Shown: in pieces, positions 29,191 to 48,032 of the stretch
Layout of the letters: every line of letters starts with the position of its first letter
Position numbering within the stretch: the first letter of the stretch is position 1
Assembly: GCA_049521055.1 (NCBI GenBank)
Contig: JBEKPE010000003.1
Location: 1 to 48,649, forward strand
Direction: 5' to 3'
From: Candidatus Bathyarchaeia archaeon
GTDB taxonomy: Archaea > Thermoproteota > Bathyarchaeia > 40CM-2-53-6
Length of the DNA: 48,649 bases
Notes under the pieces: model-generated
Told to the model about the DNA's origin: nothing
Databases searched by the model: none
The model's input: the letters and a program-made list of their open reading frames with translations, nothing else
Made by a program: the position numbers and the translations under genes

Positions 29191-29305
29191 AACGATTCGG
29201 GACCCATCAGGACGCGCGATCTAACTTTCTCATGTGCTTTGACGTGAGCACTGGCAATAGTTAGGCGACCAAGAAGGTGACGGCAGGACTCATCCTACCT
29301 CACTA

Positions 29306-29325
29306 ATTCTGAACCCGTTCAGAAT
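29306..29325. repeat. Perfect 9-bp inverted repeat sharing ATTCTGAAC with the island sites
   Basis: ATTCTGAAC-CC-GTTCAGAAT. Confidence 0.6.
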
Positions 29326-29452
29326 ATTGAATTTTTCCTATGCTTGAGTTTCGTACTGAGAAAGCTTCGTACATGAGACGATTGGGGGAAGCGAAAAGTT
29401 GTGTATATTGCGTAAATTCTTATATGCATAGAATGGCGTTCTTGATTGAAAG

Positions 29453-29671
29453 GTGAAACTTGTGCCGTTCTTCCTACCTATCGTCGGTGGTCTTTTGGCG
29501 GCGGGGTTAGTTGGGGGAGCTTTAGGACTTGGAGTCGGAGCAGCTGCCTACTACTACAGCAGACCCATGTACTATCCCTACCCGGCTGCGAACTACTCGC
29601 CATACCCATACTACGCGGCGCCTCAATTCTCTCAAGGACGCGTTTGTCCCCACTGTGGCGCGGCAATTTAG
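29453..29671 (+). CDS. Small membrane protein with Tyr/Pro-rich segment and terminal CPHCG
   Basis: Gly-rich TM segment, YYPYPAANYSPYPYY, CPHCGAAI. Confidence 0.55.
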   Translation: MKLVPFFLPIVGGLLAAGLVGGALGLGVGAAAYYYSRPMYYPYPAANYSPYPYYAAPQFSQGRVCPHCGAAI

Positions 29672-29867
29672 ATACCACCAAGCATAAACCGTAAATTTCC
29701 CTCCTTTTTCCCGCAGGGACCGCTCTTCACTATTTCGCATGCTAACACGAGTGACTGTTCCGTCCCTTTACGGAATTAACCGGCCGTTAATCGTGGCGAA
29801 TTTTCTGAGGCTGTATGTTGCAGCGCAATTGTAGAAGGGTGTAGAAACTCCCTCATGATTGGGTTTC

Positions 29868-30026
29868 TCATTTGAGTAGCCGTCCCTCGCAGGGAGCGCA
29901 GTAAGGTAGGTCGCTTAGGGGGTGAACGTTCTCAGGTCGTAGCCGGCAGCCGCAATCTGAACAACGTACATGTGATGTGGCCTGTGTGCGAGGTACACGC
30001 TGCACACTTGGTGTGATGAGACTCAA
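29868..30026 (-). CDS. Zinc-finger microprotein, 52 aa, coupled to terL (not in ORF track)
   Basis: TTG overlaps the terL TGA; translation ...RCSDCGCRLRPENVHPLSDLPYCAPCEGRLLK. Confidence 0.6.
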   Translation of the reverse strand: MSLITPSVQRVPRTQATSHVRCSDCGCRLRPENVHPLSDLPYCAPCEGRLLK

Positions 30027-31441
30027 CTTTTCGGTACTCCGAATCCGATGCCCATCCAGCTGGTGTCAGGCGTGCGCGTCGAGTACACGGCTAATGCAAG
30101 TGCCCAGAGCTCATCATCGTGAGTTCCATCCGGATGGCTGAATTGGATTTGGCCGCTTTTGGTGAGTTCGTAGTGTTCCACGTTGATTTGGGCGATGAGG
30201 TCTTGGTCGAGGTAGAGGCCGAGGCTTTCGGTTTCCATAATGTTCTTCATGTAACCAAGAATCTCTTGCTTGGACGGGACCGTGAGCATTACGCCCTCGA
30301 TGATGCTCTTGATGTGTACGTTCTTCATTTCCTCGGTTATGTATTCGCCCACACCGGTTCGGTCGACGAGCACTTTCTCGACGCGTTGGAGTTTGTCGCA
30401 GATCACCTTCACGTAGCCGATTACTGTGGCGTATGGTGTCTCGAGGGGAAAGCGAACCATACCTACGAGCTCGGCCGCTTTCTCCTTGGTGTTCCAACGA
30501 ACGATCGCTATGACCGAGAAGTCAACTTTCTTACCGAAGTCGACTCCAACAAAATATCGTCCCGCCGGGGCGACTACGTGCTTTGTCCAGTCGTCGGTGA
30601 TTGGGGCGAGGTCGCTGGCGATACATTGGGCGATTAGTTTCTGCGTGAAGTAGACTAACTCGTCCTCAACGAATTCGGCTAGGTATTCTCGGCGGAACCG
30701 TTCGCTGGGGGTTCGTTGCTTCATCTCGTCGACGAACTTCTGCGTCGTGAGGCCGGCGTCTACGACGTCTTTGATTTTCACCCATTGTTTGCTGAAGGCT
30801 TGTTCCTGGGTGAACTTGTAGAAGACTGAATCCTTGCCCCAGGGCGTGCTACTTGCGATCAGAGTGCCATCGGTTGTCTGCAGCATGGGGAAGAGGACAC
30901 TGTAGAAGACGAGTTCGTCTTCACGAAAGAAGGCTGCTTCGTCGGTGAGCACGTTGCTGGCAGTATAACCTCTCAGGAGATTGGGGTTGTTGGGTAACGC
31001 AACAATCTGCGATCCTTCCCGGAACCAGATAACGGTCCGCTGCATCTTCGCAACGATCAGGCGGCGCAGCGGTTTGTTGATTGAGAGGAGGAAACGGTGG
31101 ATCCTGTCCATAACGATCATGGATTGGCGGCGGCCCGGGGCCACGATGAGGCTGGTGGTGCCGGGGTGGGTGGATGCGTACCAGATCATGCGGACTGCGA
31201 GTGTGGTTGTTTTTCCGGATTGCCTGGGCCATACCACCACTATCCGCTTGCCTTTATCCTCGAGAAGTTTGGCCTGGTATGATGTGGGGTTAAAGCCTAG
31301 GATCTTGATCCCGAACTCAACGGGGTTATCTTCGTAGTCCTTAGCATTCCATGTTGTAGGTTGTTTTTCAGGACCCGTGAGCTGGATGGCTGCCTCGGCG
31401 TCTTCAGCTTGCTTGAGTAGGCTTGCTTGTTCCTTCCTCAA
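30023..31441 (-). CDS. terL: Terminase large subunit (Terminase_6-like ATPase plus RNase H-fold nuclease)
   Basis: YQ adenine motif, PRQSGKTT Walker A, LTDEAAF Walker B, STP coupling motif, GVDFG...DFS, HDDELWALALA. Confidence 0.92.
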   Translation of the reverse strand: MRKEQASLLKQAEDAEAAIQLTGPEKQPTTWNAKDYEDNPVEFGIKILGFNPTSYQAKLLEDKGKRIVVVWPRQSGKTTTLAVRMIWYASTHPGTTSLIVAPGRRQSMIVMDRIHRFLLSINKPLRRLIVAKMQRTVIWFREGSQIVALPNNPNLLRGYTASNVLTDEAAFFREDELVFYSVLFPMLQTTDGTLIASSTPWGKDSVFYKFTQEQAFSKQWVKIKDVVDAGLTTQKFVDEMKQRTPSERFRREYLAEFVEDELVYFTQKLIAQCIASDLAPITDDWTKHVVAPAGRYFVGVDFGKKVDFSVIAIVRWNTKEKAAELVGMVRFPLETPYATVIGYVKVICDKLQRVEKVLVDRTGVGEYITEEMKNVHIKSIIEGVMLTVPSKQEILGYMKNIMETESLGLYLDQDLIAQINVEHYELTKSGQIQFSHPDGTHDDELWALALAVYSTRTPDTSWMGIGFGVPKS

Positions 31442-31973
31442 ATTCTCTAAGCTTCGTTTTGAGAAGCTCGTTGGTTTTCACCAGCTGGTCCACAAGTGCG
31501 GTGATGTCGCCGCGTTGGTAGTCACGTAGGACGCATTGGGCTGAGAGTGAGGCTTGGGTGGCGACTTGCATGGCTGTCATTCGGGCCCCTGCCTTTCTCG
31601 CTAACTCTTCATTCTCACTCAGCTTCACAGCATCTCTTAGAATCCCGAGGGCGGTGCGGTAGAGTTCCTCACGTTCAGCTTGGACGTCTACGCTTGCGGC
31701 AATTCGCACTCCGTAGATGTGGAGTTCAAGTTCCTTCACGAGACTGTCCATGTGGTGTAGGGTGGGATACACCCCCCCGGGCGACTGGGATACACCCTTA
31801 CCCAACTTTGGGTAGGGTTCATCGGTCACCCACCCCTTGATAATTAACCGGACAAGTTCAGAGACCGTTTTCGAATCGGCAACAGCGTAAGCCCGCAACC
31901 CCTGCCGCGTAATCTCATCGAAACGAGTGACAAGCTGAGGACTTCCTTTCGAAGGCAAAGTTATTCGCTCCAC
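31404..31973 (-). CDS. RHH-like DNA-binding domain plus helical region; candidate terminase small subunit
   Basis: QLVTRFDEITRQGLRAYA...TVSELVRLII resembles ribbon-helix-helix; overlaps terL start; start uncertain (31958, 31973 or 32012). Confidence 0.5.
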   Translation of the reverse strand: MERITLPSKGSPQLVTRFDEITRQGLRAYAVADSKTVSELVRLIIKGWVTDEPYPKLGKGVSQSPGGVYPTLHHMDSLVKELELHIYGVRIAASVDVQAEREELYRTALGILRDAVKLSENEELARKAGARMTAMQVATQASLSAQCVLRDYQRGDITALVDQLVKTNELLKTKLREFEEGTSKPTQAS

Positions 31974-32001
31974 AAGTCTGTGCCTATAGTTTACAACGAT
32001 T

Positions 32002-32045
32002 ATATAGGTCATAGGGACGATACTTATAATGAATGTGACCTATAT
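32002..32045. promoter_or_regulatory. Divergent promoter with a perfect 10-bp inverted repeat (candidate operator)
   Basis: ATATAGGTCA-N24-TGACCTATAT encloses TTATAA; the left arm overlaps a minus-strand TATATAA. Confidence 0.55.
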
Positions 32046-32547
32046 GCGCCGAACACCTAGGGTAGTCCTGATGGCGAAGTTCATGAGGGTACTTTGTGAA
32101 TCGGAAGAGCCGCTGAACAAGTACCAAATCGAGAAGCGCTCGAAACTCAGTAAGGGGACCGTTTACAACATGGTCGATCATTTGAGACGGGTAGGTTGGA
32201 TAGAAGTTACCTCAACAGCCAGATCCCGCGTAGGCCTACGGGTCGAGTATTACAGGCTGACCGAGCTAGGGCAGTTCAGGGCCACTACGAGCAACCCAGA
32301 CTTAGAACCTCAGGTCAGGAATCTGCTGGGACACCGATTCGACGAGTTACAGGAAAAGGCGACCAAAGCACACCTGAACCGTTTCCGTGAGGAACTGAGA
32401 ATGGCCGAGGAAGTGTTCACTCGCGGAACGGCGCCGCCAAACTGGGCACTAAGAATCGATCTAACAGCAGACGAGAAAGGCCGACTCAGATACTCCGTAA
32501 GGAGAGGCATAGACCCCAAGAAGATTAAACGCGCACTCAGTACTTGA
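32044..32547 (+). CDS. Winged-helix (MarR/PadR/ArsR-like) transcription regulator
   Basis: LNKYQIEKRSKLSKGTVYNMVDHL...GWIE...YYRLTELG. Confidence 0.8.
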   Translation: MRRTPRVVLMAKFMRVLCESEEPLNKYQIEKRSKLSKGTVYNMVDHLRRVGWIEVTSTARSRVGLRVEYYRLTELGQFRATTSNPDLEPQVRNLLGHRFDELQEKATKAHLNRFREELRMAEEVFTRGTAPPNWALRIDLTADEKGRLRYSVRRGIDPKKIKRALST

Positions 32548-32702
32548 CGTGGACTGTTTACTTGAGCTAGATAGGAACGGCTTCTCCCGTGCCGCCTGCG
32601 TGCCAGCCCATCCGCTGACCGTAATCGAGGGCTTCGAGGGTTCTGTTCAAACTGTCTCGACGGCCGGGGCGACGCTGAGGACTCTTAGAAGATGTAAGAG
32701 TT

Positions 32703-32751
32703 TTGGACCCAAAGTTTGGAGCCGGGGATGGGAGCCGAAAATGATGTCCAA
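32703..32751 (-). repeat. 49-bp att-like site, copy C, with a tRNA 3'-like core
   Basis: TTGGAC-N5-GTT...N5-GTCCAA; minus-strand core TTCGGCTCCCATCCCCGGCTCCA; 31/49 ungapped identity to the copy at 37690 (manual count). Confidence 0.6.
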
Positions 32752-32805
32752 TTCCCATTTTTCCTGACAGACTGGCATTGGCTGCTGGAGCCTGGGTCGT
32801 GGCAG

Positions 32806-32840
32806 GTGTAAGTATTGTTTGTACACGGGTATACTTACAC
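32806..32840. repeat. Perfect 10-bp inverted repeat between convergent genes
   Basis: GTGTAAGTAT-N15-ATACTTACAC. Confidence 0.6.
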
Positions 32841-32947
32841 AAGATCGGTGGTCGGGTAGTGGTATCGTTCCTTTTTCTCCTCTGCTGGTGGATTGATGGA
32901 GGAAACGCACCCATCAGGCATATCACTGGAGTATGTTACTGCCGTAG

Positions 32948-34552
32948 TCAAGTCTGCTTTAACGCGCGTGAACGTCGCTTACCGATGTTGTAACCAAAAA
33001 CGATCGCTAGTACAAGTATTACGCCAATAACGGCTAAACCCCACGGACCTTGAGGAACGAATGCCATAGGAGGCTCCACGTAAGTGCTAGTCTCCATAGG
33101 TAGCGATTGTGTTGTCTCTGATTGGCTGTAGGTTAGCGACTGGAGACCAGAGATGTATTGCAATCCTCCCGTTTGTGATTGAATCAACGTCAGCTGCGAC
33201 GGCCAAAGTAGTTCGTTTTGTTTTCTAAGTTGTTCTCCGGTTCCTGCCATGATGTCGTTGGGTCCTATCACTGATACGCCGTAGGGGATGCTTGGGCAGA
33301 GACCAGGGAATATCCCGCATCCTGAGATTGCAGTGAGAGACGTTACCTGTTGCCAGCCGTAAGTCGTCCAATATGTAAGATTTCTAAATTCGACCGGGCC
33401 CAGACTTCCACTCGCCGAAGTCGAGGTAGTTACCTCTTCTGCCACAAAGTACGCTGCATCTTTGGATTTCGTCACTTGGAAATCGTTGGAGGATACTGTT
33501 TGTCCGTCAAGAACGAAATCCCATCCGTTCGCGACATTTGGCCAAATCTGATAAAGATGCCAAGAACCATCCGGCCCGGCCGAATTTGCAGGCCCGATGC
33601 CAGTATAGAAATTAGTTACGTTTGCAATTGGCCAATATTGCCAGAACCAACGCGCATTGCCGTAGCCGATCGTAACGGAAGAGCCCAAACAGTTCGTGCT
33701 GGCTCCTACGGTCTGCCCGTACAAACAATAGTAACCAGGGCTGAAAAGCTGATAGCCAAACTGAATGAAAGCCCCATTTTGTAAATTGTCGCCTACCCAG
33801 AAAGAATTGCTCAGATCGGGCGCAACGACGTTGTAGCTGTGAGTGCGTATTTCAGCGCCAACGCCCGTATTGCCCACTGAGGCATCATCTCCCGAAGCCC
33901 CAACCTGAAGACTATAGGTCGTCTGAGGCGGGGCTGAATAGACTGTGATGGTTTTCGAGTCGGTAGCAGTTCGCCCGGTGCTGTCCGTGATTGAAATAAC
34001 AATGGTGTATGTCCCAGTCATCGTGTAAGTGTGGCGCGGACAGCTCTGACCACAAGAAGTCACATCATTAGATGAGGTGTCCCCCCAGTAGATTACAACA
34101 CTCACCGGTCCAACAGCGCCATCGTAACTGTAGTGGTAAGATGGGCTGAAAGGCGCTGATCCGCTAAGAGGACTGACCGTGAGCGTTATCGAGAGAGCTG
34201 AATAGACTGTAATGGTCTCTGAATCTGTTGCAGTTCTTCCAGTGCCATCTGTGATTGAAATTGAAATCGTATAAGTTCCAGCAAGTGCGTAACTGTGACC
34301 TGGACAATTGTAACCGCAATTAGTCAGATCATTCGACGAGCCATCTCCCCAGTAAACCAAGATCATTACCGTGCCCACAGAGTTTCTGTAGCTAAATTGA
34401 CAGGATGGACTGAAGGGTGCTGGACCACTTAGTGGACTGCATGTTAATGTTATGGAGAGAGAATCTTGGGCGTTTGCCGTCTTGAAAGTAAGTAGAAGAA
34501 GGAGAGTCAAGACCGACACCACGAATGTCACGTAGCCGTTTCTACTAATCAA
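32948..34552 (-). CDS. Secreted, membrane-anchored protein: two PKD repeats plus a G1 glutamic-peptidase-like beta domain
   Basis: Signal peptide; two WGDG...H.Y...GTYT repeats; FWVG..FIQFG..WFWQYWP..FVAEE..PVEF; C-terminal TM helix with basic tail. Confidence 0.75.
   Translation of the reverse strand: MISRNGYVTFVVSVLTLLLLLTFKTANAQDSLSITLTCSPLSGPAPFSPSCQFSYRNSVGTVMILVYWGDGSSNDLTNCGYNCPGHSYALAGTYTISISITDGTGRTATDSETITVYSALSITLTVSPLSGSAPFSPSYHYSYDGAVGPVSVVIYWGDTSSNDVTSCGQSCPRHTYTMTGTYTIVISITDSTGRTATDSKTITVYSAPPQTTYSLQVGASGDDASVGNTGVGAEIRTHSYNVVAPDLSNSFWVGDNLQNGAFIQFGYQLFSPGYYCLYGQTVGASTNCLGSSVTIGYGNARWFWQYWPIANVTNFYTGIGPANSAGPDGSWHLYQIWPNVANGWDFVLDGQTVSSNDFQVTKSKDAAYFVAEEVTTSTSASGSLGPVEFRNLTYWTTYGWQQVTSLTAISGCGIFPGLCPSIPYGVSVIGPNDIMAGTGEQLRKQNELLWPSQLTLIQSQTGGLQYISGLQSLTYSQSETTQSLPMETSTYVEPPMAFVPQGPWGLAVIGVILVLAIVFGYNIGKRRSRALKQT
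33935..34462 (-). repeat. Intragenic tandem duplication encoding two ~88-aa PKD domains (boundaries approximate)
   Basis: LSITLT.SPLSG.APFSPS...TGRTATDS.TITVYSA occurs twice. Confidence 0.85.
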
Positions 34553-34780
34553 CGGCTAACCGCCCTCAAGATTTCTGTGCGGAGACTCATGCAAAACGTC
34601 GCTAAATTGATTGCGTTACCAAATTGATATTGCAAATTGTGTTCCTGAAACAAAAAACATGTTACTGCGGTCGTAGTCTAGTCTGGTCTAGAGTCTGGTT
34701 TTCGTGAGGTTTTAGCAAGTTAATGCCCTAGTGGATGATAGGCTACGGTAGGTAACCCAGATGTCCTTGAAGTAACTATT

Positions 34781-34829
34781 CTGAACTAAAGATATGGCGC
34801 CAGGAGAGGGAGCTGAACTAAAGGTTCAC
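34781..34829 (-). repeat. 49-bp att-like site, copy B, with a degenerate tRNA-Ser-like 3' core
   Basis: 40/49 ungapped identity to 37690-37738 (manual count); minus-strand core GTTCAGCTCCCTCTCCTGGCGCCA. Confidence 0.85.
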
Positions 34830-34878
34830 AATCTCACAAGTGGATGTCGAGCCGATTAACCTCTTGGAGTTCTTTCAT

Positions 34879-36897
34879 CTATTGTCCCTGTATCGCGAAG
34901 TCTGTCTCAAAGCTCGCACTTGAACTACCAAAAGAAAACCCAGCAACTTCGATCCATGACCACAAGTGTACCTCGGTGCTGCCGGACTCATGCGGATTAA
35001 GATCGAACACAACGCGATATTGCTCCACTCCGTTGCTGTTTACCATAATTGGAAATTCAGAGACGGAGTAGACGTTTGGTGTTGTGAATTCGCTAGGTGG
35101 CTGTGGTGGGGTAGGTCCAGTGATTCCTAGAAGCCCCGCCATTGTTTCGTAAAAGCCAGCCGCAGTTCCAATTCCCGGGACTAAACCTATGATTCCATAA
35201 AGTGCGGTTTGGTCTATTTCCTGTTGATTCTTCACGCTCGTAATATCTATTTGCTGCCAACCGCTGGTGCCGAGTTCCGGCGGCGGATAATAGTAATATC
35301 CCTCGTATCGCACCCCACCTAGATCTGGTCCCTGACGTCTATCTAAGGACAGGAGGATAGTTCCCGACGTTATCGATGTAGCTGGGTAAAACATACCCAA
35401 CTGATTGCCCTTCCACAATTGGATTAGGATCGTGTATTCTCCCCACTGCTGTGTTGTCACAGAAGTCGGCCCGCAAACAAAGTATTTCACAGAAAATCCA
35501 GACAGTGCTCCCGTAACAGTAGCTGTTCCTGACGCACCCGGAATAAGTGGTTCTGGAGTTATCGGGATAGTTGCACCCTGTGTGCATACATTGGTCGAAC
35601 TTTGGCTTTGAATTAGAGTGAGCGTTACGGTTCCTCCCCCTGCCAGGTTAAGCACTTGAGTTTTGGTTTGATATCCCGTGGCTGATACCGAGAAAGTGTA
35701 ACTGCTGGGATTCGGCAGGTTCACTGAGCAGGAACCAGTTGGGTCAGTCGTACATGAAATAGATGGGTTACCAGTATCCACGAGTGAAGCATCGGCAATT
35801 GGGTTGCCCGAGACGTCAACAACTTTGAACCCCACAGTTAGTGAAGTCGAAGTTGAAGTTGTGCCGGTCGTAGGTTGGAACACGAATACCCCAATCAAAT
35901 CAGCCGCATTATTGGTATTCTGACCGGTGATACACTGCGAAGTGGTTTCTTTCACATTGTAGTTTCCTTGTCCCAGAACGGCGTGACCGATCGTGATAGC
36001 ATTTGATCTCGTCCCTTGGTTAGTTGCATCCTGGATAAACCCTGTAAGCCCACTAACAGCCAGACATTGCTCGTCTCCTCCTAGAGCAAATACAACAACC
36101 AAACTATTGGATGTAGAAACTTGGAAATTCACCGACACGCTGGATGCACCCGGTGACGTATTACTGTTGAAATAGGGGATCACTTGACCCAAGTAACCCG
36201 AAACCCCAATTCCTCCTGTCGAATAAGACGAGGTTTGCGTTGAAAACGAGTTTGCATCACTAGGGGTATAAGCTAACCCAGCTACTATGTTCCCCGCAGC
36301 ATTTGTGGCTGATTGATACGAACCGTACGCGAATGGCATACTTGCAAGCCGGCCCCCCGTAACAAAACCGTAAAGGTACAGATTACTTCCTGACTGCAAG
36401 GTCAAGCTGTTCGTCTGAGCAATCGTCGGGCCAGATACTGTAGGTGACGAAGGGAGGAAGAATGGGTCGCCAACTCCTGGATCGCAGCTGCCGGGTGTGA
36501 CATTCGACAACGTCTGGTTGGCGCTTCCAGTGTTCCCGCCGCTGTCGTAGGCTACGACGCTCACTGAGTATGTTCCAGCAGCCGCGAAAATGTGCGTACG
36601 TACGTCGCTAACCAAACTCTCCGCTGAGAAGGGTAAATCCAGCGTTGACCCGTCCCCGAAATCCCAATGCAAATTCGTAATCCACAACCCACTTGATGTC
36701 TGCGCGTGAACATCGAGCTGGTATGCGCAAGGACCCGAAGTAATGGCTGTGGGGGAATCGAACCAAACCTGCAACGGTTGGTTAGCGGTTTGATATGAAG
36801 AGGCTGCATACACCGCAACACTCAACCCCGGCATGATTGATGACAGTAGGACGATCGCGATGAGAAACGGAAGAACGGCAAATGAAAGACGCTTCAA
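34879..36897 (-). CDS. Secreted Ser/Thr-rich surface protein with a PKD domain and a carboxypeptidase-regulatory-like Ig domain
   Basis: Signal peptide, WDFGDG, V.D.SGNPIADA...TD.TG...Y...VSATGY. Confidence 0.8.
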   Translation of the reverse strand: MKRLSFAVLPFLIAIVLLSSIMPGLSVAVYAASSYQTANQPLQVWFDSPTAITSGPCAYQLDVHAQTSSGLWITNLHWDFGDGSTLDLPFSAESLVSDVRTHIFAAAGTYSVSVVAYDSGGNTGSANQTLSNVTPGSCDPGVGDPFFLPSSPTVSGPTIAQTNSLTLQSGSNLYLYGFVTGGRLASMPFAYGSYQSATNAAGNIVAGLAYTPSDANSFSTQTSSYSTGGIGVSGYLGQVIPYFNSNTSPGASSVSVNFQVSTSNSLVVVFALGGDEQCLAVSGLTGFIQDATNQGTRSNAITIGHAVLGQGNYNVKETTSQCITGQNTNNAADLIGVFVFQPTTGTTSTSTSLTVGFKVVDVSGNPIADASLVDTGNPSISCTTDPTGSCSVNLPNPSSYTFSVSATGYQTKTQVLNLAGGGTVTLTLIQSQSSTNVCTQGATIPITPEPLIPGASGTATVTGALSGFSVKYFVCGPTSVTTQQWGEYTILIQLWKGNQLGMFYPATSITSGTILLSLDRRQGPDLGGVRYEGYYYYPPPELGTSGWQQIDITSVKNQQEIDQTALYGIIGLVPGIGTAAGFYETMAGLLGITGPTPPQPPSEFTTPNVYSVSEFPIMVNSNGVEQYRVVFDLNPHESGSTEVHLWSWIEVAGFSFGSSSASFETDFAIQGQ

Positions 36898-37315
36898 TGT
36901 TGATCAGTGCAGGGACCGGAGCCTGAGAAGATACAACGACAACTGTTAACGTACCAAGCAAAGCGTCAGCCCTCGGCTGTTCTGATGTACCATCTGATGA
37001 CCACAGGTGACCATCGAGGTACTCAAGGATTTGTCAAATGAGACTGCTGGCTGTAGACCTTTTTTAACCCTTGATTGCCGCGAGCTCTAGAAGGGTATAG
37101 GCGTTCTCAGCGGAGCCACTTTGATGCCAATTTGGCCTTTAGAAATTCTCAACTTCACGTCTACACACGCGAATATGGCCCGAAGCTACCTGCAGAGACA
37201 GGGGCAAAGACCGTCCATCCATCACTTGGCATGAGTCCGGCACAAGTCGGCAGAATGTTTTTCGACAAAGCAAGTGAGAATGTCAGTTCTTTAGGGTTGT
37301 CTCTACTATTGGTGG

Positions 37316-37669
37316 ATGATAGAACGTAAGCCGACAGTCCCTAAATTAGGGGTGATAGTCTGGGCTAGTCGGTGTGTCTTGGGGTCGCAGATTAATGAGA
37401 CGGCGTTGAAGCGAGTAACCTGCTGGGCGTTCTACTATCTCGGCCTGATTGACGGAATGTCGAGGAGTCTGGATACCATTAAGGGATTAAATCCTGAACC
37501 TTTGAACGATCTCGAATGGCAAACTGAACTCCGGAGCCATCTACCACCTGAATTGGCCGGCCTTCGGCATCCAGACACAAACGGAGAACCCGCAATTAGA
37601 ATAATAAAACAGGAATTAGCGCAGGCCCTGCATGGAACAAAACGACAACGCCACAGAACAAGCAAGTGA
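37316..37669 (+). CDS. Hypothetical protein, possibly a gene fragment
   Basis: ORF only; ends about 20 bp before site A. Confidence 0.3.
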   Translation: MIERKPTVPKLGVIVWASRCVLGSQINETALKRVTCWAFYYLGLIDGMSRSLDTIKGLNPEPLNDLEWQTELRSHLPPELAGLRHPDTNGEPAIRIIKQELAQALHGTKRQRHRTSK

Positions 37670-37689
37670 GGATAGCTGATTTCAGGATT

Positions 37690-37738
37690 CTGAACCTAAG
37701 GTTTGGCGCTGGGAGAGGGATTTGAACTAAAGGTTCAA
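37690..37738 (-). repeat. 49-bp att-like site, copy A, containing a 24-nt tRNA 3' end (T-loop to CCA; Ser-like, G discriminator)
   Basis: Minus strand 37727-37704 reads GTTCAAATCCCTCTCCCAGCGCCA; flanked by CTGAAC-N5-GTT and TTGAAC-N5-GTTCAA; no 5' tRNA portion. Confidence 0.85.
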
Positions 37739-37767
37739 GCTCCCTACATTTGGGGTTTCTAGCGGCT

Positions 37768-37838
37768 CTGAACCCAAAGTTCAGGGCCTCGGGCGGGAAT
37801 CCTACGAGTACCGTAGTTGCAATCCCATCCCCGTTCAG
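37768..37838. repeat. Related site, copy D, foldable as a ~70-nt hairpin
   Basis: CTGAAC-CCAAA-GTTCAG box; minus-strand TCCCGCCCGAGGCC tRNA-like core; CTACG-N5-CGTAG; plus-strand AATCCCATCCCCG; closing GTTCAG. Confidence 0.55.
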
Positions 37839-37865
37839 CGGTCGACATTGGTAAGCCGATCTCAA

Positions 37866-38282
37866 TTATTCGGAACTGAATCCCAGCTTCTTCAAAAGCT
37901 GGTCAGTATTTTCTTCAAGTAGTTTCTGTATGAATCCAGGGTAGTTCCGAGTGGTGTCCAAAACCGCTTTGACCATCTCAAGAACATCTTTATCATATGT
38001 ATGAATTTCGAACTCGTAATCTAGACAACCACATAGGAAGAAGCTCCCCGCATCGTCGTCTGAGAGACACTTCTGAACTTTAGCAGAGAAATCAAGCGGA
38101 GAAGGTCCGGTCGACGAGGCTGCAAACACGGAGCGCCCCGCGATAATTGCGCTGAGGTCTCCTTTTAACTCGAAGCTTGTGCTAGGAAACACCCTCACAA
38201 GCGGTCCCGCAGCTGCCTGCCAATTCCAAATGATTTTGAGTCGTTTTGGCCTAAGCTCGCAGGCGCGAAGTTGGTTGCTCAT
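37866..38282 (-). CDS. Hypothetical protein (last gene of the four-gene operon)
   Basis: 138-aa ORF starting 6 bp after the preceding stop. Confidence 0.6.
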   Translation of the reverse strand: MSNQLRACELRPKRLKIIWNWQAAAGPLVRVFPSTSFELKGDLSAIIAGRSVFAASSTGPSPLDFSAKVQKCLSDDDAGSFFLCGCLDYEFEIHTYDKDVLEMVKAVLDTTRNYPGFIQKLLEENTDQLLKKLGFSSE

Positions 38283-38288
38283 ACTTAC

Positions 38289-39635
38289 TCATTCCACAAA
38301 TTCGATAAGAATGGTTACCCTAGTATTTCTGGGTAGGGAATTGAAAACTAACTCTGCACGCGTGCCCGCAAACGATACCGGCTGTGGGGTAATCTTCTTA
38401 AACGGTCGGTCTTTGGATAACAAGCGAACCTTGACATTCTCCAGGTCCTGATCTGCCAGTACATCTAGATCAAACCGATAGGTCCTCTCTTGAATACGTA
38501 AGGGAGTTGCGTCATGTTCTACCTTCATCACGTATGGATCATCTTTCCGGGCAGGATGACGAAAGGCTATATCGTATAGATTTCGTTTTCCGAAAGTGAT
38601 TATTCTTTTTGGATGCAACTCTCCAAAATAGTCACTGAATTTCACCTTAAGATCTGACGGAAACCCCCACATCGCTCCCTTTCGCATGATCTTTCTCGTC
38701 GATAAATAATGAAAGGTCCAAACGTCGCTGACTTTTGATGTGAGTTGCCCGTCAGCTAAAAGAAAAGTAATCGATAACTCAGCATCTATGGGTGCATTCC
38801 GCGCGGGGACATGGGGTGTGAGATACTCTTCGATGGGTAGTAGACTTCCCCTCATGCGAACGACTGTTGTGTAGTTTCCAAAGGCCCTAACGATGTACGG
38901 AGGAGATAAAGACTCAAAGGAGTAATGGTATCCTCCAAAGGCTTGATCTTCAAGAACAAATTGTTTGCATGATTTTTGTAATAGCGCTTCAGCAACACCT
39001 GGAGACATGACACTGGGATACTTCTTAACGGCTACCACGGATCTGCCAAGGGCCGAAGAAAATACCAAAATTAGAAGAAAAATGGCGCCCCCGAGTATAG
39101 ATGGGAATGCAGTAATCATGAGGCTGAGGCCATTCGTGTAATCCGTCACTATTCGTCGGAAACCGGAGACTCTTGAGTTGCCGAGTCTCTCTGTCACAGC
39201 TCTACTTGCCGTGTAGGGACAAGCAATAACCGAGATCGATACTAATGAGGCGAGAGGTATAATTTGATAGATTTCGTACAGACGCTGAAAGAATGAACCT
39301 TGTATGTAGTAACCGGGAAGCATTAGAGCTAGGCTGAAGATCGTGAGCAGTTTCGTTCTATTGATAAGCAATTTGCCCAGAAGATGAGTCACTAGAGTTA
39401 GCAGCAGAATTCCAAACAAGAAAAGCGTTTGATCGACCTTGAAGCTCGGCAACCCGATCGAGCGGATCCAATTAACAATGAAGAACCAGAACACAAATGC
39501 GCTTAGGTATACCCTTATCGACGAGCCCCATAGTTCCCAAGTGGTCTTGGAAAGCGTTTCGCCAAGTCGGTTTTTGATCAGCTTTACAAGTTCCTGTCGA
39601 GCGTCGTCTCCAAGCGTTCCAAGGTCAAGAGTCAT
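38289..39635 (-). CDS. Multi-pass membrane protein with a soluble beta-rich C-terminal domain
   Basis: About 5-6 hydrophobic helices within residues ~35-200. Confidence 0.7.
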   Translation of the reverse strand: MTLDLGTLGDDARQELVKLIKNRLGETLSKTTWELWGSSIRVYLSAFVFWFFIVNWIRSIGLPSFKVDQTLFLFGILLLTLVTHLLGKLLINRTKLLTIFSLALMLPGYYIQGSFFQRLYEIYQIIPLASLVSISVIACPYTASRAVTERLGNSRVSGFRRIVTDYTNGLSLMITAFPSILGGAIFLLILVFSSALGRSVVAVKKYPSVMSPGVAEALLQKSCKQFVLEDQAFGGYHYSFESLSPPYIVRAFGNYTTVVRMRGSLLPIEEYLTPHVPARNAPIDAELSITFLLADGQLTSKVSDVWTFHYLSTRKIMRKGAMWGFPSDLKVKFSDYFGELHPKRIITFGKRNLYDIAFRHPARKDDPYVMKVEHDATPLRIQERTYRFDLDVLADQDLENVKVRLLSKDRPFKKITPQPVSFAGTRAELVFNSLPRNTRVTILIEFVE

Positions 39636-39797
39636 TTCACTCCCTTGATGTCCTTGTACGAATCGAGCGTCTTCAGTATTGTGCTAACTTACAGGAATCG
39701 TTTGTAAACGATCTGCGAGTTGCGGCTGAGTCATGGTTTCAGGTTGAACGTCGTCAATCTTCTCGTCAGGATCCAAGCTCCCCCAGCTATTTCATAG

Positions 39798-41258
39798 TCA
39801 CACGAAATACGGATCACCCAGTATAGAGGCTAGAAAGTACACCAATCCCGATATGGACTCAGCCACGAGGAGTCCTGTTTCCGTAGGTGTACCGAATGCC
39901 TTTTCGAATAATGCATTTGCGCTCTCTTCCTTCGCAGCAAGCCTTTTGATGAATATGTGATCAGCAATTGAGGCGTAGAACCTTTGAGCTATAATGCCAT
40001 CCTGTCTTCCATCAGATTCAGAGACACTGTATGCAACGTAAGCATGAACAGGGCCTAACCAGTTCGATAATTGGTCCTGCAAGGACAGTGTTTGGACCAA
40101 TAATCTGAGCTCGTCTATCTCGCTCTGAATCCAACTCTGTAACGACTGATCCGTCGCTTGAGCAACTTCGATAAGAGGTCTTTGAAGTCTCAAGTCTCTA
40201 AGGCTCCGTTCTATATCATTCAATGCTGTGAGGTACGGATGGTCTTGCCGAAGGTACGATTTTCTATCTTTCGAATAGCTCTTCGTTTCGCGCATCAGCC
40301 ACTTATTTTCCAACATATTATTTGTTGGATTCCATGGTCCTATGGTTTCTGTCCGAACTTCAACCTCATCGTTAGGACCAGATGCTACATATTCCCTAAC
40401 GATGAGCTGTTCGCCAGATGGATCGACGGCAACCACGAGATGCTTGCCCATCATTAGGCCTCCTAAGGCCACATCCAAATCGGGCACTCGGCTCACTATC
40501 GATCTATAGTAACGTAGATAATCCTTGTACCATTTCTCCAAACGGTTCTCGTTCTCCCCTCCGAGATTTCCAAAATATCGCCTCGCGACATCACGCTTGT
40601 TCAGGGAACCGAGCCTTGCAACAGCAGCGTTCATGGGGAAGAGCGATAAAGGATGAATTGGAAGCTTCGTAGTTCGGACCCGGATAATGCCTTCGTCCTG
40701 AAGTCCTGAGACTCGGTGTAAGAATTCCCCTTCTAGTTCAGAGTCATCGTCAAGAGGAAGAATTCCTGTAAACACCATTGGATCTATGGCAATCTTGACG
40801 TACAATCCTCTCTTCAGGTCCCCGACACCTCTTAGGGCATTATTCAACGGGTCGTCGGTACTGCTCAGCGTTCGCCACGGGATTCGCTTTTGAAAAATCT
40901 GAAAGGCATAGAATAGTAAGTCTGGTAGCGGAACACGACCTTTCTGCCTACTTTCGAAGGCTTGAATCAGCTCTTGTGACTCTCTCGCATCCAATAGACA
41001 ATGAAGCTCTGGTTCTGTTCCTACGATTCCTTGTTCCTTAAGATATTGAATTTGCGCAACTACATGGTTGCTAAACGACTTGAAGGCGCCACGTAGAGTT
41101 GTTATCTCAACCTTGTCTAAAGCTAAGAAAGAAGCGATGTGCTCAGCTCTCAATGGGCCTCGTCCACCGTACCCTTCAATGCGGTAGATCATGTTGAGAA
41201 TTTCCAAAATCTCAAACCCAAATCGTTCCTCAAGCCCACGTAGTCGCGAGCTGCTCAA
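39798..41258 (-). CDS. Hypothetical protein with N-terminal wHTH-like region and a possible degenerate PIN-like motif
   Basis: EHIASFL...IQYLKEQGIV; VKIAIDPMVF; 4-bp overlap with the upstream gene. Confidence 0.6.
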   Translation of the reverse strand: MSSSRLRGLEERFGFEILEILNMIYRIEGYGGRGPLRAEHIASFLALDKVEITTLRGAFKSFSNHVVAQIQYLKEQGIVGTEPELHCLLDARESQELIQAFESRQKGRVPLPDLLFYAFQIFQKRIPWRTLSSTDDPLNNALRGVGDLKRGLYVKIAIDPMVFTGILPLDDDSELEGEFLHRVSGLQDEGIIRVRTTKLPIHPLSLFPMNAAVARLGSLNKRDVARRYFGNLGGENENRLEKWYKDYLRYYRSIVSRVPDLDVALGGLMMGKHLVVAVDPSGEQLIVREYVASGPNDEVEVRTETIGPWNPTNNMLENKWLMRETKSYSKDRKSYLRQDHPYLTALNDIERSLRDLRLQRPLIEVAQATDQSLQSWIQSEIDELRLLVQTLSLQDQLSNWLGPVHAYVAYSVSESDGRQDGIIAQRFYASIADHIFIKRLAAKEESANALFEKAFGTPTETGLLVAESISGLVYFLASILGDPYFV

Positions 41259-42418
41259 TTAGTAAACCTCCATACGTTGACTGGTTCTGATTGCAGCTCG
41301 CATCCTAGCACCGCATCCCCTAAGACATCATTTATCGCATTGATCGTGCCATCACTCCCGTCAGTTGAAAGATGAGGAATCGTTCCAAACAAGGACCCCG
41401 AATTTGTTCTTACTTCGACCGCGATTTTGTAGGTTCCAGGATGTTGCCTTAACGTTCTTTCGAGCTCATCGAGATTAGTGGCGTTGAGATTGCTTTGACG
41501 CATTGTGATGGTAAAGCATCCAGCTTCGCTTGGAGGTCTTTCGAGTTCTAAGATTTTCCCCGAGGCTTGGTCGATTAACTGCACGTGAAATAGTGGGATG
41601 TTGTATTCTCTGAATACGCTTGCTACGCTTCGCAGTTCCTCGGTTAGTTCTTCTCTCAACCACTCACACAGTTCAAGATGTCTTATGACGGAACCTAGTT
41701 GCTCTGGTGAAGGCAAGATGTAGACCCAGATCGAAGAACTTACGGCATCATAGTTGACCCCTGTAACCAGGAAGTTTCTTCTCCAATAGTCTTTAGAGGA
41801 CGCAGGCATTGCCTGTTCAAACAGTTCGAAGATTGCCTCAGGAGATCTTTGGTTGTCTATGTCGGAAGCGTCCGAGACTCTTAGAATTGCTGCAAGAAGT
41901 CTTACCCTGATGGGATTTTGATTCACAGTTGTAAAGGGGATTACGGTTGAGATGTCTACTATCCGACGGTGGGCGCGGGTTATAGCAGTCAGAAGCGATG
42001 TGAGGCCAGCAGGAAGAGCTGGCAGGTGATTAGCTCTTTCTATGAGTGACAAAATCTGCGCCACTCGCTCGTGATGTTCGCTACGGGCATATTCATCAGA
42101 CTCGTTCGGACTTAACTTGAAAAGCATGCCTACGTCATGCGTCCAAATCGCTAAGAGCAGGAGCAACGCTTCACAACAAGTGAGATTAAGATTAGATTTG
42201 CCAATCAGCTCCTCGGCGTAACGCTGGGCTCGCCTTAGATGGTCAGGCGTATGGTCGTTAAAGTAAGCTTGACGTGTATGTTGCAGATCGAGTCCAGTTG
42301 GCGGTGGAAAATTCGAGACTTGCTCTATAGCCCTTCGGTACAGGTCAAAGACTGACGCGGGACGCATCGTGTTGTCTCTGCAATCGTCCTCAAGAAATCG
42401 ATCCAAAGGCAAACGCAT
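41255..42418 (-). CDS. HD-CE-like phosphohydrolase with a small C-terminal domain
   Basis: YFNDHTPDH, AIWTHDVGM, RSEHH, AH, LLAAILRVSDASD...RSP. Confidence 0.8.
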   Translation of the reverse strand: MRLPLDRFLEDDCRDNTMRPASVFDLYRRAIEQVSNFPPPTGLDLQHTRQAYFNDHTPDHLRRAQRYAEELIGKSNLNLTCCEALLLLLAIWTHDVGMLFKLSPNESDEYARSEHHERVAQILSLIERANHLPALPAGLTSLLTAITRAHRRIVDISTVIPFTTVNQNPIRVRLLAAILRVSDASDIDNQRSPEAIFELFEQAMPASSKDYWRRNFLVTGVNYDAVSSSIWVYILPSPEQLGSVIRHLELCEWLREELTEELRSVASVFREYNIPLFHVQLIDQASGKILELERPPSEAGCFTITMRQSNLNATNLDELERTLRQHPGTYKIAVEVRTNSGSLFGTIPHLSTDGSDGTINAINDVLGDAVLGCELQSEPVNVWRFTN

Positions 42419-42848
42419 AGACTTCTCATTACTCCTCGAATCTATCGGAGTTCGTACCTGACGACGGTGAGCCTGTTGGGTCGCAGACTCTGTGGATGTA
42501 ACCTAAGTGCTTGGCCTCGGAGAATGGGCCTCTGGCCCACCGCTCTAGGTGTATCGAGCTAATCTCTTTGCGCGTATAAATCCCCGAGATAGGCCGATAG
42601 AGGAGTTACAGCAGGGGAGCTTAAGGTTAACTGAATAGTATGGAATCCAGCAATCAACTTGGTTGAGAGCTTCCGACTTTGGGAACCTCTAGTTCCCTGA
42701 AACCCCCTTGCAAAATCATGTATTGTGTTGGGCCGATCTGAATCACTGGCGAAGGCTGAGAGTCATTTTCATCGATCACTGACTCCTCGCCTTGCGGTGA
42801 CTTCTGAGCTTATCCGGTAGCATTGTTACGGCAAATTTGGTGATTGGT

Positions 42849-42992
42849 TTGAAATGTCCGTCCTGTCAAATTGAACTTCTAGGTCAAGAGAACTATCCCT
42901 TGAAGCGTTGTGACCAATGCAACCTTTGGTTTGAACTACAGAACGATGAGCTTGTGCTCCTACGGGCCGACCCACTGTATTTGCAGCACTGA
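42849..42992 (+). CDS. Zinc-ribbon microprotein, 47 aa (not in ORF track)
   Basis: GGTGAT RBS then TTG; MKCPSCQIELLGQENYPLKRCDQCNLWFELQNDELVLLRADPLYLQH. Confidence 0.7.
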   Translation: MKCPSCQIELLGQENYPLKRCDQCNLWFELQNDELVLLRADPLYLQH

Positions 42993-43003
42993 GTTGCAGC
43001 GTC

Positions 43004-43411
43004 TTGGAGATTGACCATAATTCGACCGATTGTCTCGATTGCCACAAGCCATTAGTTTGGATAAGTCGAAGTAAGCGGTTACTTGAAGGCCGGGATGTGG
43101 ATGAGTTGGGCTTCCGCTGCGACTCATGCAAACGTGAGTATCGATTCAGAGAGGGAAGGCTAAAGGAGCTGAAGATTGAACGAGACCCAGCCGCCGAACG
43201 CATGGCCATGCAAAAGGCCGAAGTAGACACGGTCCGGAACCGGCGTTGTCCTCATTGCGGCGGACCACTCGATGATTTCCTGACCTGCGAGTGGTGCCAT
43301 GAAAGCTACGTGGTAGAGAGCGGAGAACTTGTACCTAGAATCGAAGACAACCTCCTCGGGCAGCATAAGCCCCAGATGAGGGAATTTTATGCCCTTAACG
43401 CGCAGCGGTAA
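43004..43411 (+). CDS. Double zinc-ribbon protein
   Basis: CLDC/CDSC and CPHC/CEWC pairs. Confidence 0.75.
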   Translation: MEIDHNSTDCLDCHKPLVWISRSKRLLEGRDVDELGFRCDSCKREYRFREGRLKELKIERDPAAERMAMQKAEVDTVRNRRCPHCGGPLDDFLTCEWCHESYVVESGELVPRIEDNLLGQHKPQMREFYALNAQR

Positions 43412-43922
43412 CCACTACAACCTCCGCGCCAAACGACCCTGCCCGCAATGCCATGAGACAACGGACCAGACGGCGACAAGTTGCCGTTACAACGCTCCGG
43501 AAATACCTACAGTCCCTCCTATCCTAATCAAACGCATCGAATGGTTATGCGATTGGTGCGGTAATTACGAGGAAGAAGTCAAAGAGACCGTTCAGCCCAC
43601 AGACAAAACAATGATCGTGAAACGACTGCTCAGCCTCCCGGAGGACTACGACGTGCTAGGCTTCACCCTAAGCTCGGAAGCGAATGTGATCTCAATAAAG
43701 ATCCGATTGCCTGACTTCGATATGGGCGAATTGCGGGCCATTCAGTACAAACAACAGGAGACCGGCTTCATAACCATCGACGAACTCATCAAGGTGCAAC
43801 GAGCCGGATACAGACAACCTACAGCCGTCCCTCCTAAACCTGAGCCCCGCGACGTGGCGGCGCTTCGGAAGAACGAGAGGCAAAGAGCTTTCGCCGGGGA
43901 CCCAAGGCCTTCGTGGCGCTGA
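43389..43922 (+). CDS. Zinc-ribbon-containing hypothetical protein
   Basis: CPQC...CDWC; overlaps the previous gene. Confidence 0.65.
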   Translation: MPLTRSGNHYNLRAKRPCPQCHETTDQTATSCRYNAPEIPTVPPILIKRIEWLCDWCGNYEEEVKETVQPTDKTMIVKRLLSLPEDYDVLGFTLSSEANVISIKIRLPDFDMGELRAIQYKQQETGFITIDELIKVQRAGYRQPTAVPPKPEPRDVAALRKNERQRAFAGDPRPSWR

Positions 43923-44013
43923 AGAGGTAAGAGGGAATCAAAATTGAGGGCGAGAATTAAGTGGTTGACTCTGATTCAGACCACGGAAGGGGTGCGTCAT
44001 TCTTGATTCTTGG

Positions 44014-44352
44014 TTACATGTGCACGATTTCTTCTGGCGGTGGCTCATCGCTGGGCTGCTCTAGGTCGACTCCCGTAACTGATTTGACTTGTTGTTTGAA
44101 CCATACCATGAACGGGTCTTTTGACTTGGCTTCAGTTTCGAAAGTCTTCTCAATGTCCTCGGCTTCAAAGTGAACGATCACCATGTCGCCTTGAGGAGTC
44201 TTCTGCAGGAACCATGATTCCTTCGTTACGCCTTGTCTCTTCAGTGCTTCCGCAAATTCGGCGCGTCTCGGACCCATACATGCCTTCGCAAACTCTCTTC
44301 CAGCTTCAGTCTTACCTGGAAGCAGTGGGAATGCTCCGCAAAATGTTTTCAT
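44014..44352 (-). CDS. Small conserved-looking protein, probable dimeric alpha/beta barrel (DUF6176-like)
   Basis: PLLPGK.E...GV.KE.WFLQ.TP.GD...F..WF...TG.DL pattern. Confidence 0.6.
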   Translation of the reverse strand: MKTFCGAFPLLPGKTEAGREFAKACMGPRRAEFAEALKRQGVTKESWFLQKTPQGDMVIVHFEAEDIEKTFETEAKSKDPFMVWFKQQVKSVTGVDLEQPSDEPPPEEIVHM

Positions 44353-44527
44353 GGCGCAACATCTTCACCTGATCGCTAATATGCCTTACGAAACAACTCG
44401 GAGCGTTCTATCCGCAACACAATTCATCAAGAGATGAATGGTCGGTTGACAGTCGAGCGTTACGGAACGCTCAACCCTAAAGAGAATCAGTTCTCCATCA
44501 GAGCGTTGCGGAGGTAGACTTGTTCCT

Positions 44528-46360: not shown

Positions 46361-46482
46361 TCAAGCTAGGTCATCTAGGTCTTCACCGAACATGTCCGAA
46401 ACGGGGAAGAGTGTGAGCGCACCTTTGTTCCTTTCGCCAAATCATAAGTATCTTCCCCGTACTCGATTGATTCGAAAGAAAG

Positions 46483-46803
46483 TTGACCGAGAATAAATAC
46501 CACGAAGTGTGGTTCATCCAAATCGTGGAACGAACGCTTTTTGGGCCGTCTCCTTACCAATTCCTATTTCACCTGAAAACGCATCCTGTTGAACAGATGA
46601 AGGGGCAAGGACCACCCGTGACGAGGTTCGATTGGCCTTCTAACAGCTACGGAATGGAATGGGAGAGTTTCGTAGCGAATGATAACACGAGACCGTACCT
46701 CGATCAGCCCATCGAAAAGATAATGGCGATCCGCGAGGTATTGCAAGCCATAAGCATCCCGTGTTTCCCAACTGGATTATGGACAGGTTCAAGGAGGCTT
46801 TAG
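46483..46803 (+). CDS. Hypothetical protein
   Basis: ORF ends 7 bp before the SIR2-like start. Confidence 0.4.
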   Translation: MTENKYHEVWFIQIVERTLFGPSPYQFLFHLKTHPVEQMKGQGPPVTRFDWPSNSYGMEWESFVANDNTRPYLDQPIEKIMAIREVLQAISIPCFPTGLWTGSRRL

Positions 46804-46810
46804 ACCAATC

Positions 46811-47209
46811 ATGCTGTTGGCAATATTCGGCGCTGGTGCAACTTACGATTCTTGCTCTTCGTTCTTGCCTGAATCACATCCTGACATACGACCCCCTCTA
46901 GCGAAAGACCTGTTCGTGGTCAAGGGGAATTTTAGAGATCATATGAGACAATATCCGAAATGTTTTGACGTGTTGCCAAGACTTGAATCACCACCTGCAG
47001 GCAGCACCGTCGAACATGAACTTGAGAAGCTTCAAGCATCTGGAGACTACGAAGTACCTCGACAACTCGCCTCGATTCGCTTCTATTTACGTGACATTAT
47101 CTGGGATTGCGTGGGAAAGTGGATGGCGGAAACTAGAGGTGCAAGCAATTACAAGGTCTTGTTAAACTATATATTCGGGCCGTTAACTCATTCTTGTACT
47201 CAACAGTAG
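46811..47209 (+). pseudogene. Truncated SIR2-like (SIR2_2) protein, N-terminal fragment
   Basis: IFGAGA, PPLAKDLF, E..LE; ends before the expected TFNYD and HGS motifs. Confidence 0.6.
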
Positions 47210-47308
47210 GTGAATGGTTTTCCTTAGGCAAGAATATCCAAACTGTGATTATGCCCGCCTGACCTAAGGGTTGATCTGCTTGGATGCATCGTGATTTGAT
47301 TCGAATTT

Positions 47309-47343
47309 GTTTCAGATCCCTCCATCTCTGACCCTAATTGAGT
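47309..47343 (+). repeat. 35-bp direct repeat, left copy, flanking the C39-like gene
   Basis: 28/35 identity to 47936-47970 (manual count). Confidence 0.75.
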
Positions 47344-47347
47344 TAAG

Positions 47348-47884: not shown

Positions 47885-47935
47885 GTCTTCTTACTCCTAT
47901 GCCTTGTGTTATGCCGTTCGGAGTTTGAATCATTC

Positions 47936-47970: not shown

Positions 47971-48032
47971 AAGTCCGCAAGACTATGTGTCGCGTCATAG
48001 GAGCTAGGAATTCCCCATCTCTGTTTTCAAGC

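Follow-up and report, generated by a model that had tools for sequence, protein, structure and literature searches.

The stretch analyzed here, referred to as the window, is a complete contig of 48,649 bp (G000:C3) from a Bathyarchaeia metagenome-assembled genome (MAG), G000. Two genes of its minus strand, encoding a PKD-domain protein (32948-34552) and a PKD/CarboxypepD_reg surface-type protein (34879-36897), lie among short sites that contain the 3' end of a transfer RNA (tRNA) gene. An original prediction, made from the letters of the DNA, had taken these sites for an integron-like array. We named them A (32703..32758), B (34781..34842), C (37690..37751) and D (37768..37816), all on the minus strand. 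As predicted, the four sites share one orientation and each PKD gene is flanked by two of them, the gene at 34879-36897 by C and B and the gene at 32948-34552 by B and A. The sites are attachment (att)-type junctions on tRNA ends, and B and C belong to a cassette-array family without a linked integrase. With moderate confidence, we attribute the junctions to site-specific insertion of small modules at tRNA 3' ends, with integron-like arrays in relatives.

Sites in the window and their anatomy

The pattern TGRAC-N37-GTYCA matched the window exactly three times, at 32704-32750, 34782-34828 and 37691-37737 (sites A, B and C), compared with a mean of 0.29 matches in the shuffled window, and none of 100 shuffles reached three. 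The double-box sites A, B and C are therefore real. Gapless identity over 49 nt was 40 for B/C, 31 for A/C, 29 for A/B, 26 for A/D and for C/D, and 23 for B/D, against 12.3 ± 3.1 for random 49-mer pairs from the window (maximum 25 among 20,000 pairs). The value of 31/49 first given for A/C was recovered, whereas the 40/49 first given for A/B belongs to B/C. Site D had been counted as a further copy; since its identities of 23-26/49 stand beside a random maximum of 25, it is borderline only.

Sites A, B and C each present two inverted boxes 37 nt apart and, on the minus strand, a tRNA 3' end running from the T-loop to CCA. This reading held when the cores were matched to the tRNA genes of G000, which encode CCA and many of which contain introns. 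The core of site A (32717-32734) reproduces the 3' end of the tRNA encoded intact at G000:C67:4371, with an exact 16-nt match extending to the last nucleotide. The cores of B (34795-34817) and C (37704-37726, 23 nt) each show one mismatch to the tRNA end found on contigs C95 and C71 of G000 (on C71 at the contig end); in B the mismatch is in the acceptor and the T-loop is a variant. The matching tRNA has a long variable arm (class II), and G000:C64 encodes a close variant of it. ARAGORN called the C64 gene Leu(CAG) and the C95 copy an intron-containing Pyl(CTA). The latter call is probably wrong, and we refer to the class-II tRNA behind the B and C cores as tRNA-Leu below.

Site D matches tRNA-Gly ends imperfectly (37785-37799), lacks CCA and abuts the arm of site C; a palindrome, CTGAAC-N5-GTTCAG (37768-37784), follows its tRNA-Gly-like end on the minus strand. 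We regard D as a putative decayed Gly-type copy, a degenerate fourth site. Pairs of D-like and C-like sites adjoin each other also in L045, L069 and L044 (L denotes metagenome loci or contigs carrying sites, and G genomes of the genus, of which 23 were scanned). About 12 orphan tRNA 3' fragments are present in the whole G000 genome, and a paralogue of site A lies at G000:C180:2728-2754. No whole tRNA was detected in the window, either by ARAGORN or by Rfam at the gathering threshold; the single Rfam match at E≤10, to a long non-coding RNA, was discarded as spurious. The sites had been described as intergenic, which is correct with respect to large open reading frames (ORFs); the only ORFs that run into A, C and D are short shadow frames of 87-119 aa. 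In the window, the fragments sit 37-170 nt 3' of same-strand genes.

A B/C-type site measures about 50 bp and consists of a 23-nt arm, foreign to the tRNA, fused upstream of the last 23 nt of tRNA-Leu. In site C the arm ATGTAGGGAGCTTGAACCTTTAG occupies 37727-37749 (23 nt), a box or incomplete inverted arm lies at 37690-37703, and a covariance model matches at 37702-37751 (E 1.1e-15). In site B a diverged arm (34818-34840) and a downstream box (34781-34794) surround the core, with a covariance model match at 34793-34842 (E 8e-12). The arm repeats the T-loop and 3' T-stem in inverted form, so that arm and T-arm form a palindrome of 12-13 bp around a 5-nt center. Site A represents a sister family with the same architecture. 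Its arm (32732-32758), which begins ATGGGAATTGGAC, is fitted to the T-stem of its own tRNA, and an inverted box GTCCAA lies downstream (32703-32716).

We aligned 35 distinct sites. The central box columns of this alignment were preset by the search pattern, so their conservation proves nothing; columns 4-11 (arm) and 36-48 (acceptor), which were not preset, are conserved. The 12-pair palindrome of arm and T-arm was kept in 85.5% of the cells, compared with 26-48% in slid registers, and the 23-nt arm was common to sites with unrelated cargo. The second box of the prediction lies after CCA. It extends into a clear full inverted arm in 5 of 37 junctions (z ≥ 3.9) and continues partly as an inverted arm in site C, and at the C95 tRNA an inverted arm copy likewise follows CCA. 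The double-box appearance therefore comes from a module's end, a tRNA copy and the beginning of the module after it.

Folded as single-stranded DNA, the sites (C, B, A and D) paired the arm locally with the T-loop, or paired nothing, and did not pair the two outer boxes with each other. Compared with shuffles, the z-scores were -2.76 for C, 0.24 for B and 0.99 for A, B and A folding no better than shuffled sequence. The fold shows a simple hairpin, interrupted by a 2x1 internal loop but lacking 3-nt bulges.

Cassette arrays at tRNA-Leu in relatives

A scan with the B/C-type covariance model recovered further copies of the site, as the original prediction would have it. Ten of the 23 genus genomes gave matches at E≤1e-3 and six at E<1e-7 (G001, seven matches; G013, four; G000, two; G017, G020 and G007, one each). 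The A-type sister family was present in 5 of the 23. Box and tRNA end occurred together in 7 Bathyarchaeia records among the 13 stretches returned from a genome collection and in 33 of 42 metagenome stretches. The remaining 6 of the 13 stretches, from other taxa, had no tRNA end and were rejected as chance matches, as was one match without a tRNA end in viral contigs.

In relatives and in peat metagenome contigs, arrays of one to seven B/C-type sites lie directly 3' of tRNA-Leu, between cbf5 and rps13. The longest, on G001:C35, has seven near-identical sites of a single orientation within 7 kb. At G001:C3, G017:C2, L039, L053, L054, L059, L060 and L066, tRNA-Leu lies downstream of cbf5; next come one or two cassettes with a site at the end of each, and then rps13 and rps4 or a chromate-transporter block. 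G009 has the empty site, with cbf5, the tRNA and rps13 adjacent. In G000 itself, two diverged full copies of tRNA-Leu, at the end of C71 and at C95:8116-8299, share the same promoter-like upstream stretch. The C71 copy follows cbf5 and is truncated where its contig stops, and the C95 copy lies directly upstream of a chromate-transporter/SDR block; the pair may be due to duplication of the target or to a bin that mixes two strains.

After removal of loci duplicating others, we delimited 27 cassettes at 14 loci, measuring 456-2347 bp (median 845 bp). They carry one or two genes each, with detoxification, transporter, toxin-antitoxin or metabolic cargo that includes a KaiC-like ATPase, SnoaL, VIT1 with EamA, PaREP1 with an antitoxin-like gene, RibD_C, DinB, glyoxalase, APH and DUF1326. 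No replication, capsid or integrase genes were present in the modules between the B/C-type sites of relatives.

Comparison between genomes and metagenome loci showed cassettes gained, lost and reshuffled exactly at the sites, as had been anticipated, in relatives and not in the window. One cassette is the first after the tRNA in L054, the second in L053 and the fourth in G001:C35. Positions 4388-5192 of L009 correspond to 1800-2611 of L054 with 84% identity over 812 nt, the match starting inside a core and ending inside the next site. The flanks on either side are common to L053 and L054, whereas entire cassettes between them differ. In the interval from tRNA-Leu to the same chromate-transporter block, G017 carries the KaiC cassette, L039 the RibD_C cassette and a small cassette, L056 the DinB cassette, and the C95 copy of G000 no cassette. 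The idea of an integron-like cassette array thus holds for the relatives, where cassette-bounding arrays recur with up to seven copies. The window sites, in contrast, do not form a single uniform array: their tRNA ends come from three different tRNAs, and two or more site families are represented among them.

The island around the sites

The first part of the window (1-29,190) encodes core metabolism. Synteny with the closest relative, G013, ends at 29192-29196, directly after copD. At this point G013 has a tRNA gene pointing at copD and then genes that in G000 are located on contig C52, and C52 has the same tRNA followed by 2.7 kb of unrelated sequence. This synteny break and the unrelated sequence after the C52 tRNA place the variable region at 29197..48649, with all four sites, in an island of no less than 19 kb lying 3' of the tRNA seen on C52. 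The window contig ends inside the island, and all four sites share the orientation of this head tRNA. No copy of the last 16 nt of the head tRNA, with up to 4 mismatches, was found at the copD boundary (29100-30200). A perfect box-like palindrome, TTCTGAACCCGTTCAGAA, lies at 29307..29324, 117 nt inside this boundary, and may be what is left of a terminal site.

The beginning of this island next to its tRNA lies outside the window, at G000:C52:11086-13774. A 22-nt motif occurs there three times (11196, 11970 and 13014), and its other strand reads as a T-arm-like hairpin with an arm. The motif resembles the arm of an orphan tRNA fragment at C32:5251, and its copies may constitute another tRNA-derived site array in the opposite orientation.

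The sites delimit two modules on the minus strand. Module 1 (34843..37689, 2.85 kb), between C and B, contains the PKD/CarboxypepD_reg gene and orf117 (37316-37669, plus strand), which accompanies C-type sites elsewhere. No Pfam or PHROG family was found for orf117, and an Atlas search gave low-score leads only (0.77; TM<0.5). The unit of orf117, site C and site D recurs in G013 (three places), L062, L045 and L013 with different neighbours, which identifies the island as a mosaic. Module 2 (32759..34780, 2.0 kb), between B and A, contains the PKD-domain gene and a tRNA 5'-half-like fragment at about 34667-34716 on the plus strand, opposite to the sites, which resembles a 5' acceptor strand and D-arm. 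In four metagenome runs this segment had about three times the contig depth, with loose ends at 34684 and 34716, indicating that other contigs share it; blastn-short found no match to it elsewhere in G000.

Besides the two PKD-type proteins, the island encodes a lone terminase, a PadR-type regulator, an HD-CE protein, a family B DNA polymerase (PolB) and many ORFs without a family. We scanned 20 island ORFs against Pfam and 10 of those 20 also against PHROGs, where the terminase was the only match. The terminase large-subunit gene (30023..31441, minus strand) adjoins orf202 and the PadR-type regulator (32029-32547, plus strand). It has no neighbouring head or portal genes, has a 38%-identical paralogue on G000:C62 and is read as a provirus relic. 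The HD-CE gene (41255-42418, minus strand; E 5e-28) adjoins two large ORFs (448 and 486 aa) without Pfam or PHROGs family. The PolB gene (44528..46360, plus strand) encodes a protein with 78% amino acid identity to its homologue in L062 and is 78-89% identical at this level to the PolB genes adjoining C-type sites in L062 and L065. In L062, PolB is followed directly by the orf117 homologue and then by a C-type site, an order suggesting that the window copy is rearranged or circularly permuted.

Origin of the junctions

The reading that we favor, with the moderate confidence given above, is that conservative site-specific recombination at tRNA 3' ends creates each junction. Four observations fit such recombination: the repeat is identical to a tRNA end, the arrays begin with an intact tRNA, breakpoints fall in the cores, and cassettes start after CCA. 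A junction would keep the last ~23 nt of the tRNA gene (T-loop, 3' T-stem, 3' acceptor strand and CCA), preceded by the module-borne 23-nt arm, and the second box would be the start of the next module. We infer that the tRNA-identical 23 nt are the shared segment with the crossover inside it, and that a recombinase encoded in trans, most likely a tyrosine integrase like those beside other tRNA genes, performs the exchange. Small cargo cassettes without integrase would pile up in this manner at tRNA-Leu between cbf5 and rps13, to be gained, lost and reshuffled at the sites. In the alignment, T-loop variants tend, by eye, to accompany arm subtypes, a faint hint that the crossover would lie 3' of the T-loop. 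The arm/T-arm palindrome looks like a recombinase dimer site; for comparison, passages of PMC8371274 describe archaeal dif (Xer) sites with 11-nt arms and a 6-nt spacer.

Several results weigh against this reading. Integrases of the PF00589 family were sought in five of the six site-positive genomes (G000, G001, G013, G017 and G020), and none lay beside tRNA-Leu or on the window contig. Searches with phmmer, hmmsearch and jackhmmer, using the four G000 integrases as queries against 1083 ORFs from 41 site-bearing loci (253 kb) and the window's island, returned only a 67-aa fragment in L036 and two matches at E~0.003. No recombinase family was found among the scanned island ORFs, nor at E≤10 in Pfam for 10 of them. 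At the sites themselves, the arm/T-arm palindrome showed no covariation beyond shuffles or sequence conservation, 32 of the 37 junctions had no clear downstream inverted arm, and the cassette ORFs of relatives face either direction. In G000 the covariance matches were B and C only. Each of these two is substituted in an acceptor column otherwise at least 90% conserved, which suggests that the window copies may be dead. The window cores (Leu, Gly-like and C67-type) also differ from the head tRNA of the island, so that serial insertion at one tRNA fails to explain the window. Finally, Logan contigs from four peat runs, one of them probably the source sample, were mapped to 31500-39000 of the window. 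They bridged the sites that they covered unchanged, without joints or indels, and the excised circles or alternative junctions proposed earlier were not seen in these contigs. Because contigs hide rare forms such as circles and empty sites, this lack of joints counts as weak evidence. The window junctions are probably old and inactive.

Tyrosine recombinases do occur beside other tRNA genes. G000 has four PF00589 integrases, each adjoining another tRNA gene (C67, C53, C5 and C51), and the single match in G001 (C10) is likewise beside a tRNA gene. These searches found no recombinase linked to the B/C-type sites, whereas the C67 integrase adjoins the intact tRNA matching site A. No recombinase or transposase appeared among the 25 listed of the 113 Pfam families matched by 71 ORFs neighbouring the sites. 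An SSV-type integrase (PF16795) gave one sub-threshold match, in G013 only, and was not retained. In G013, six tyrosine-recombinase ORFs stand in a row within 12 kb (C16:1240-12959).

More tentatively, the arrays could represent a dedicated gene-capture platform of this Bathyarchaeia genus, integron-like in its working and made from tRNA parts, with a hot spot at tRNA-Leu, cassettes carrying their own promoters, sites palindromised on the T-arm and an unlinked, possibly non-phage-type recombinase. Such a recombinase would insert, remove and reorder the cassettes, and would also act occasionally at the T-arms of other tRNA genes, which would explain why Leu-, Gly-, Pro-like and C67-type cores stand behind a similar arm, scattered into islands.

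It is unlikely, but deserves discussion, that the sites are stacked relics, i.e., that complete tRNA-targeting proviruses or plasmids integrated serially and decayed, their scars bracketing the PKD genes by chance without any cassette mobility. This was the more ordinary alternative of the prediction, and the chemistry of the sites agrees with it. The lone terminase, PolB and many family-less ORFs of the island, the three tRNAs behind the window cores, the integrase on C67, the absence of joints in contigs and the point changes in B and C all fit decayed elements. Passages of PMC6563490 and PMC8371274 moreover describe tandem reuse of one att site with loss of integrase genes in archaeal elements. 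The modules of relatives, in contrast, are not decayed whole elements: they measure 0.46-2.3 kb, carry single cargo genes and lack genes for replication, capsids or integrases. One and the same 23-nt arm accompanies unrelated cargo, and a given cassette occupies different places in the arrays, its homology stopping at the sites.

Direct repeats of tRNA 3' ends bound the units, as in tRNA-targeting elements, and no integrase of their own stands beside the att site in the cassettes. The intact target tRNA stands at the array head in relatives (B/C type), while the island of the window lies 3' of a different tRNA (C52). The repeats and, in relatives, the head tRNA are shared with accreted elements and cis-mobilizable elements (CIMEs), known from work in streptococci. 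Such units, too, can lack an integrase, which would then have to be supplied in trans. The present units differ by their small size, their one or two cargo genes, the arrays of up to seven and the common 23-nt palindromising arm, and no integrase-bearing partner at the tRNA-Leu site was found in the five genomes searched.

The ssrA islands of Dehalococcoides each carry their own recombinase and many genes. They resemble our arrays by the copies of a small-RNA gene 3' end between tandem units and differ in being bacterial; repeated 3' ends of ssrA (tmRNA) separate the tandem islands there (PMC3146451).

Three other explanations are less likely: a casposon-like route, an RNA-level role and a true integron. 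Casposons target the 3' ends of tRNA or protein genes, with a target repeat of 14-15 bp. In an array of casposon-like or other transposons, the arms would be terminal inverted repeats and the tRNA 3' end a target-site duplication made by a Cas1-type or other transposase. Indeed, an inverted arm follows CCA after the C95 tRNA and in 5 of 37 junctions, which then read as arm, tRNA end and inverted arm, PolB genes are found in the island and beside the C-type sites of L062 and L065, and the arrays stand at a 3' gene end. Casposons also form tandem arrays, according to parts of PMC6563490. Cas1 (PF01867), however, was found in none of the five site-bearing genomes, whereas 7 of 14 control genomes matched. 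The left inverted arm is mostly missing, the repeat is at least 23 nt long, the units are far smaller, and the Pfam families listed for neighbouring ORFs held no transposase, all of which makes this route improbable.

It is more improbable still that the sites act at the RNA level, as 3' pieces of split or intron-bearing tRNAs or as tRNA-like signals for 3' processing or termination of the upstream genes. Many tRNAs of the genome contain introns, and in the window the fragments end in CCA a short distance 3' of same-strand genes. However, they cover tRNA positions 54-76 only, seven near-identical copies occur in one array, many cassette genes of relatives face the opposite way, and intact copies of the same tRNAs exist. 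The plain hairpin of the sites shows no bulge-helix-bulge, and neither Rfam nor ARAGORN found a tRNA in the window (a 5' half elsewhere was not searched for).

Least credible of all is a canonical integron, or a cluster of attC sites lacking integron integrases (CALIN), in which IntI would recombine attC sites as folded single strands: the inverted AAC/GTT boxes recall attC, but arm pairs with T-loop instead of box with box, every site center is an exact tRNA end, and no IntI was found by the PF00589 and integrase homology searches, nor any PF00589 ORF in or beside the arrays. The R' box of attC is GTTRRRY, unlike the GTTCA of our sites. The attC comparison made in the prediction was not supported. 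Likenesses remain in the same-orientation sites, the cassette-sized units of variable order, the frequent lack of a nearby integrase and the cargo (DinB, glyoxalase, SnoaL, toxin-antitoxin and transporter genes). Integrons nevertheless differ by their attC hairpins in place of a tRNA end with an inverted T-arm copy, and by insertion at attI next to intI, at the head of the array, instead of at a tRNA gene; gene orientation here is also mixed. Integrons reported in archaeal MAGs have canonical attC sites and IntI, as described in parts of PMC9668308, and the main text of that paper contains no occurrence of "tRNA". The arrays are integron-like in function and are not integrons.

The literature searched yielded no description of tRNA-end cassette arrays in archaea, and passages of a Bathyarchaeia virus survey (PMC10848311) mention integrases and no such arrays. 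For the window itself the meaning is more modest: its PKD genes lie in an old mosaic island, and these junctions mark the borders of the modules there. If our reading of the arrays is true, they would amount to a second chromosomal store of interchangeable single-gene cassettes, of independent construction, and the first such system based on the tRNA T-arm rather than on attC hairpins, in an abundant, uncultured archaeal class. The 50-bp site and its hot spot (cbf5, tRNA-Leu, rps13) would let gene flow in Bathyarchaeia populations be followed, and would also permit a hunt for the recombinase and tests of how tRNA gene structure and mobile DNA are connected.

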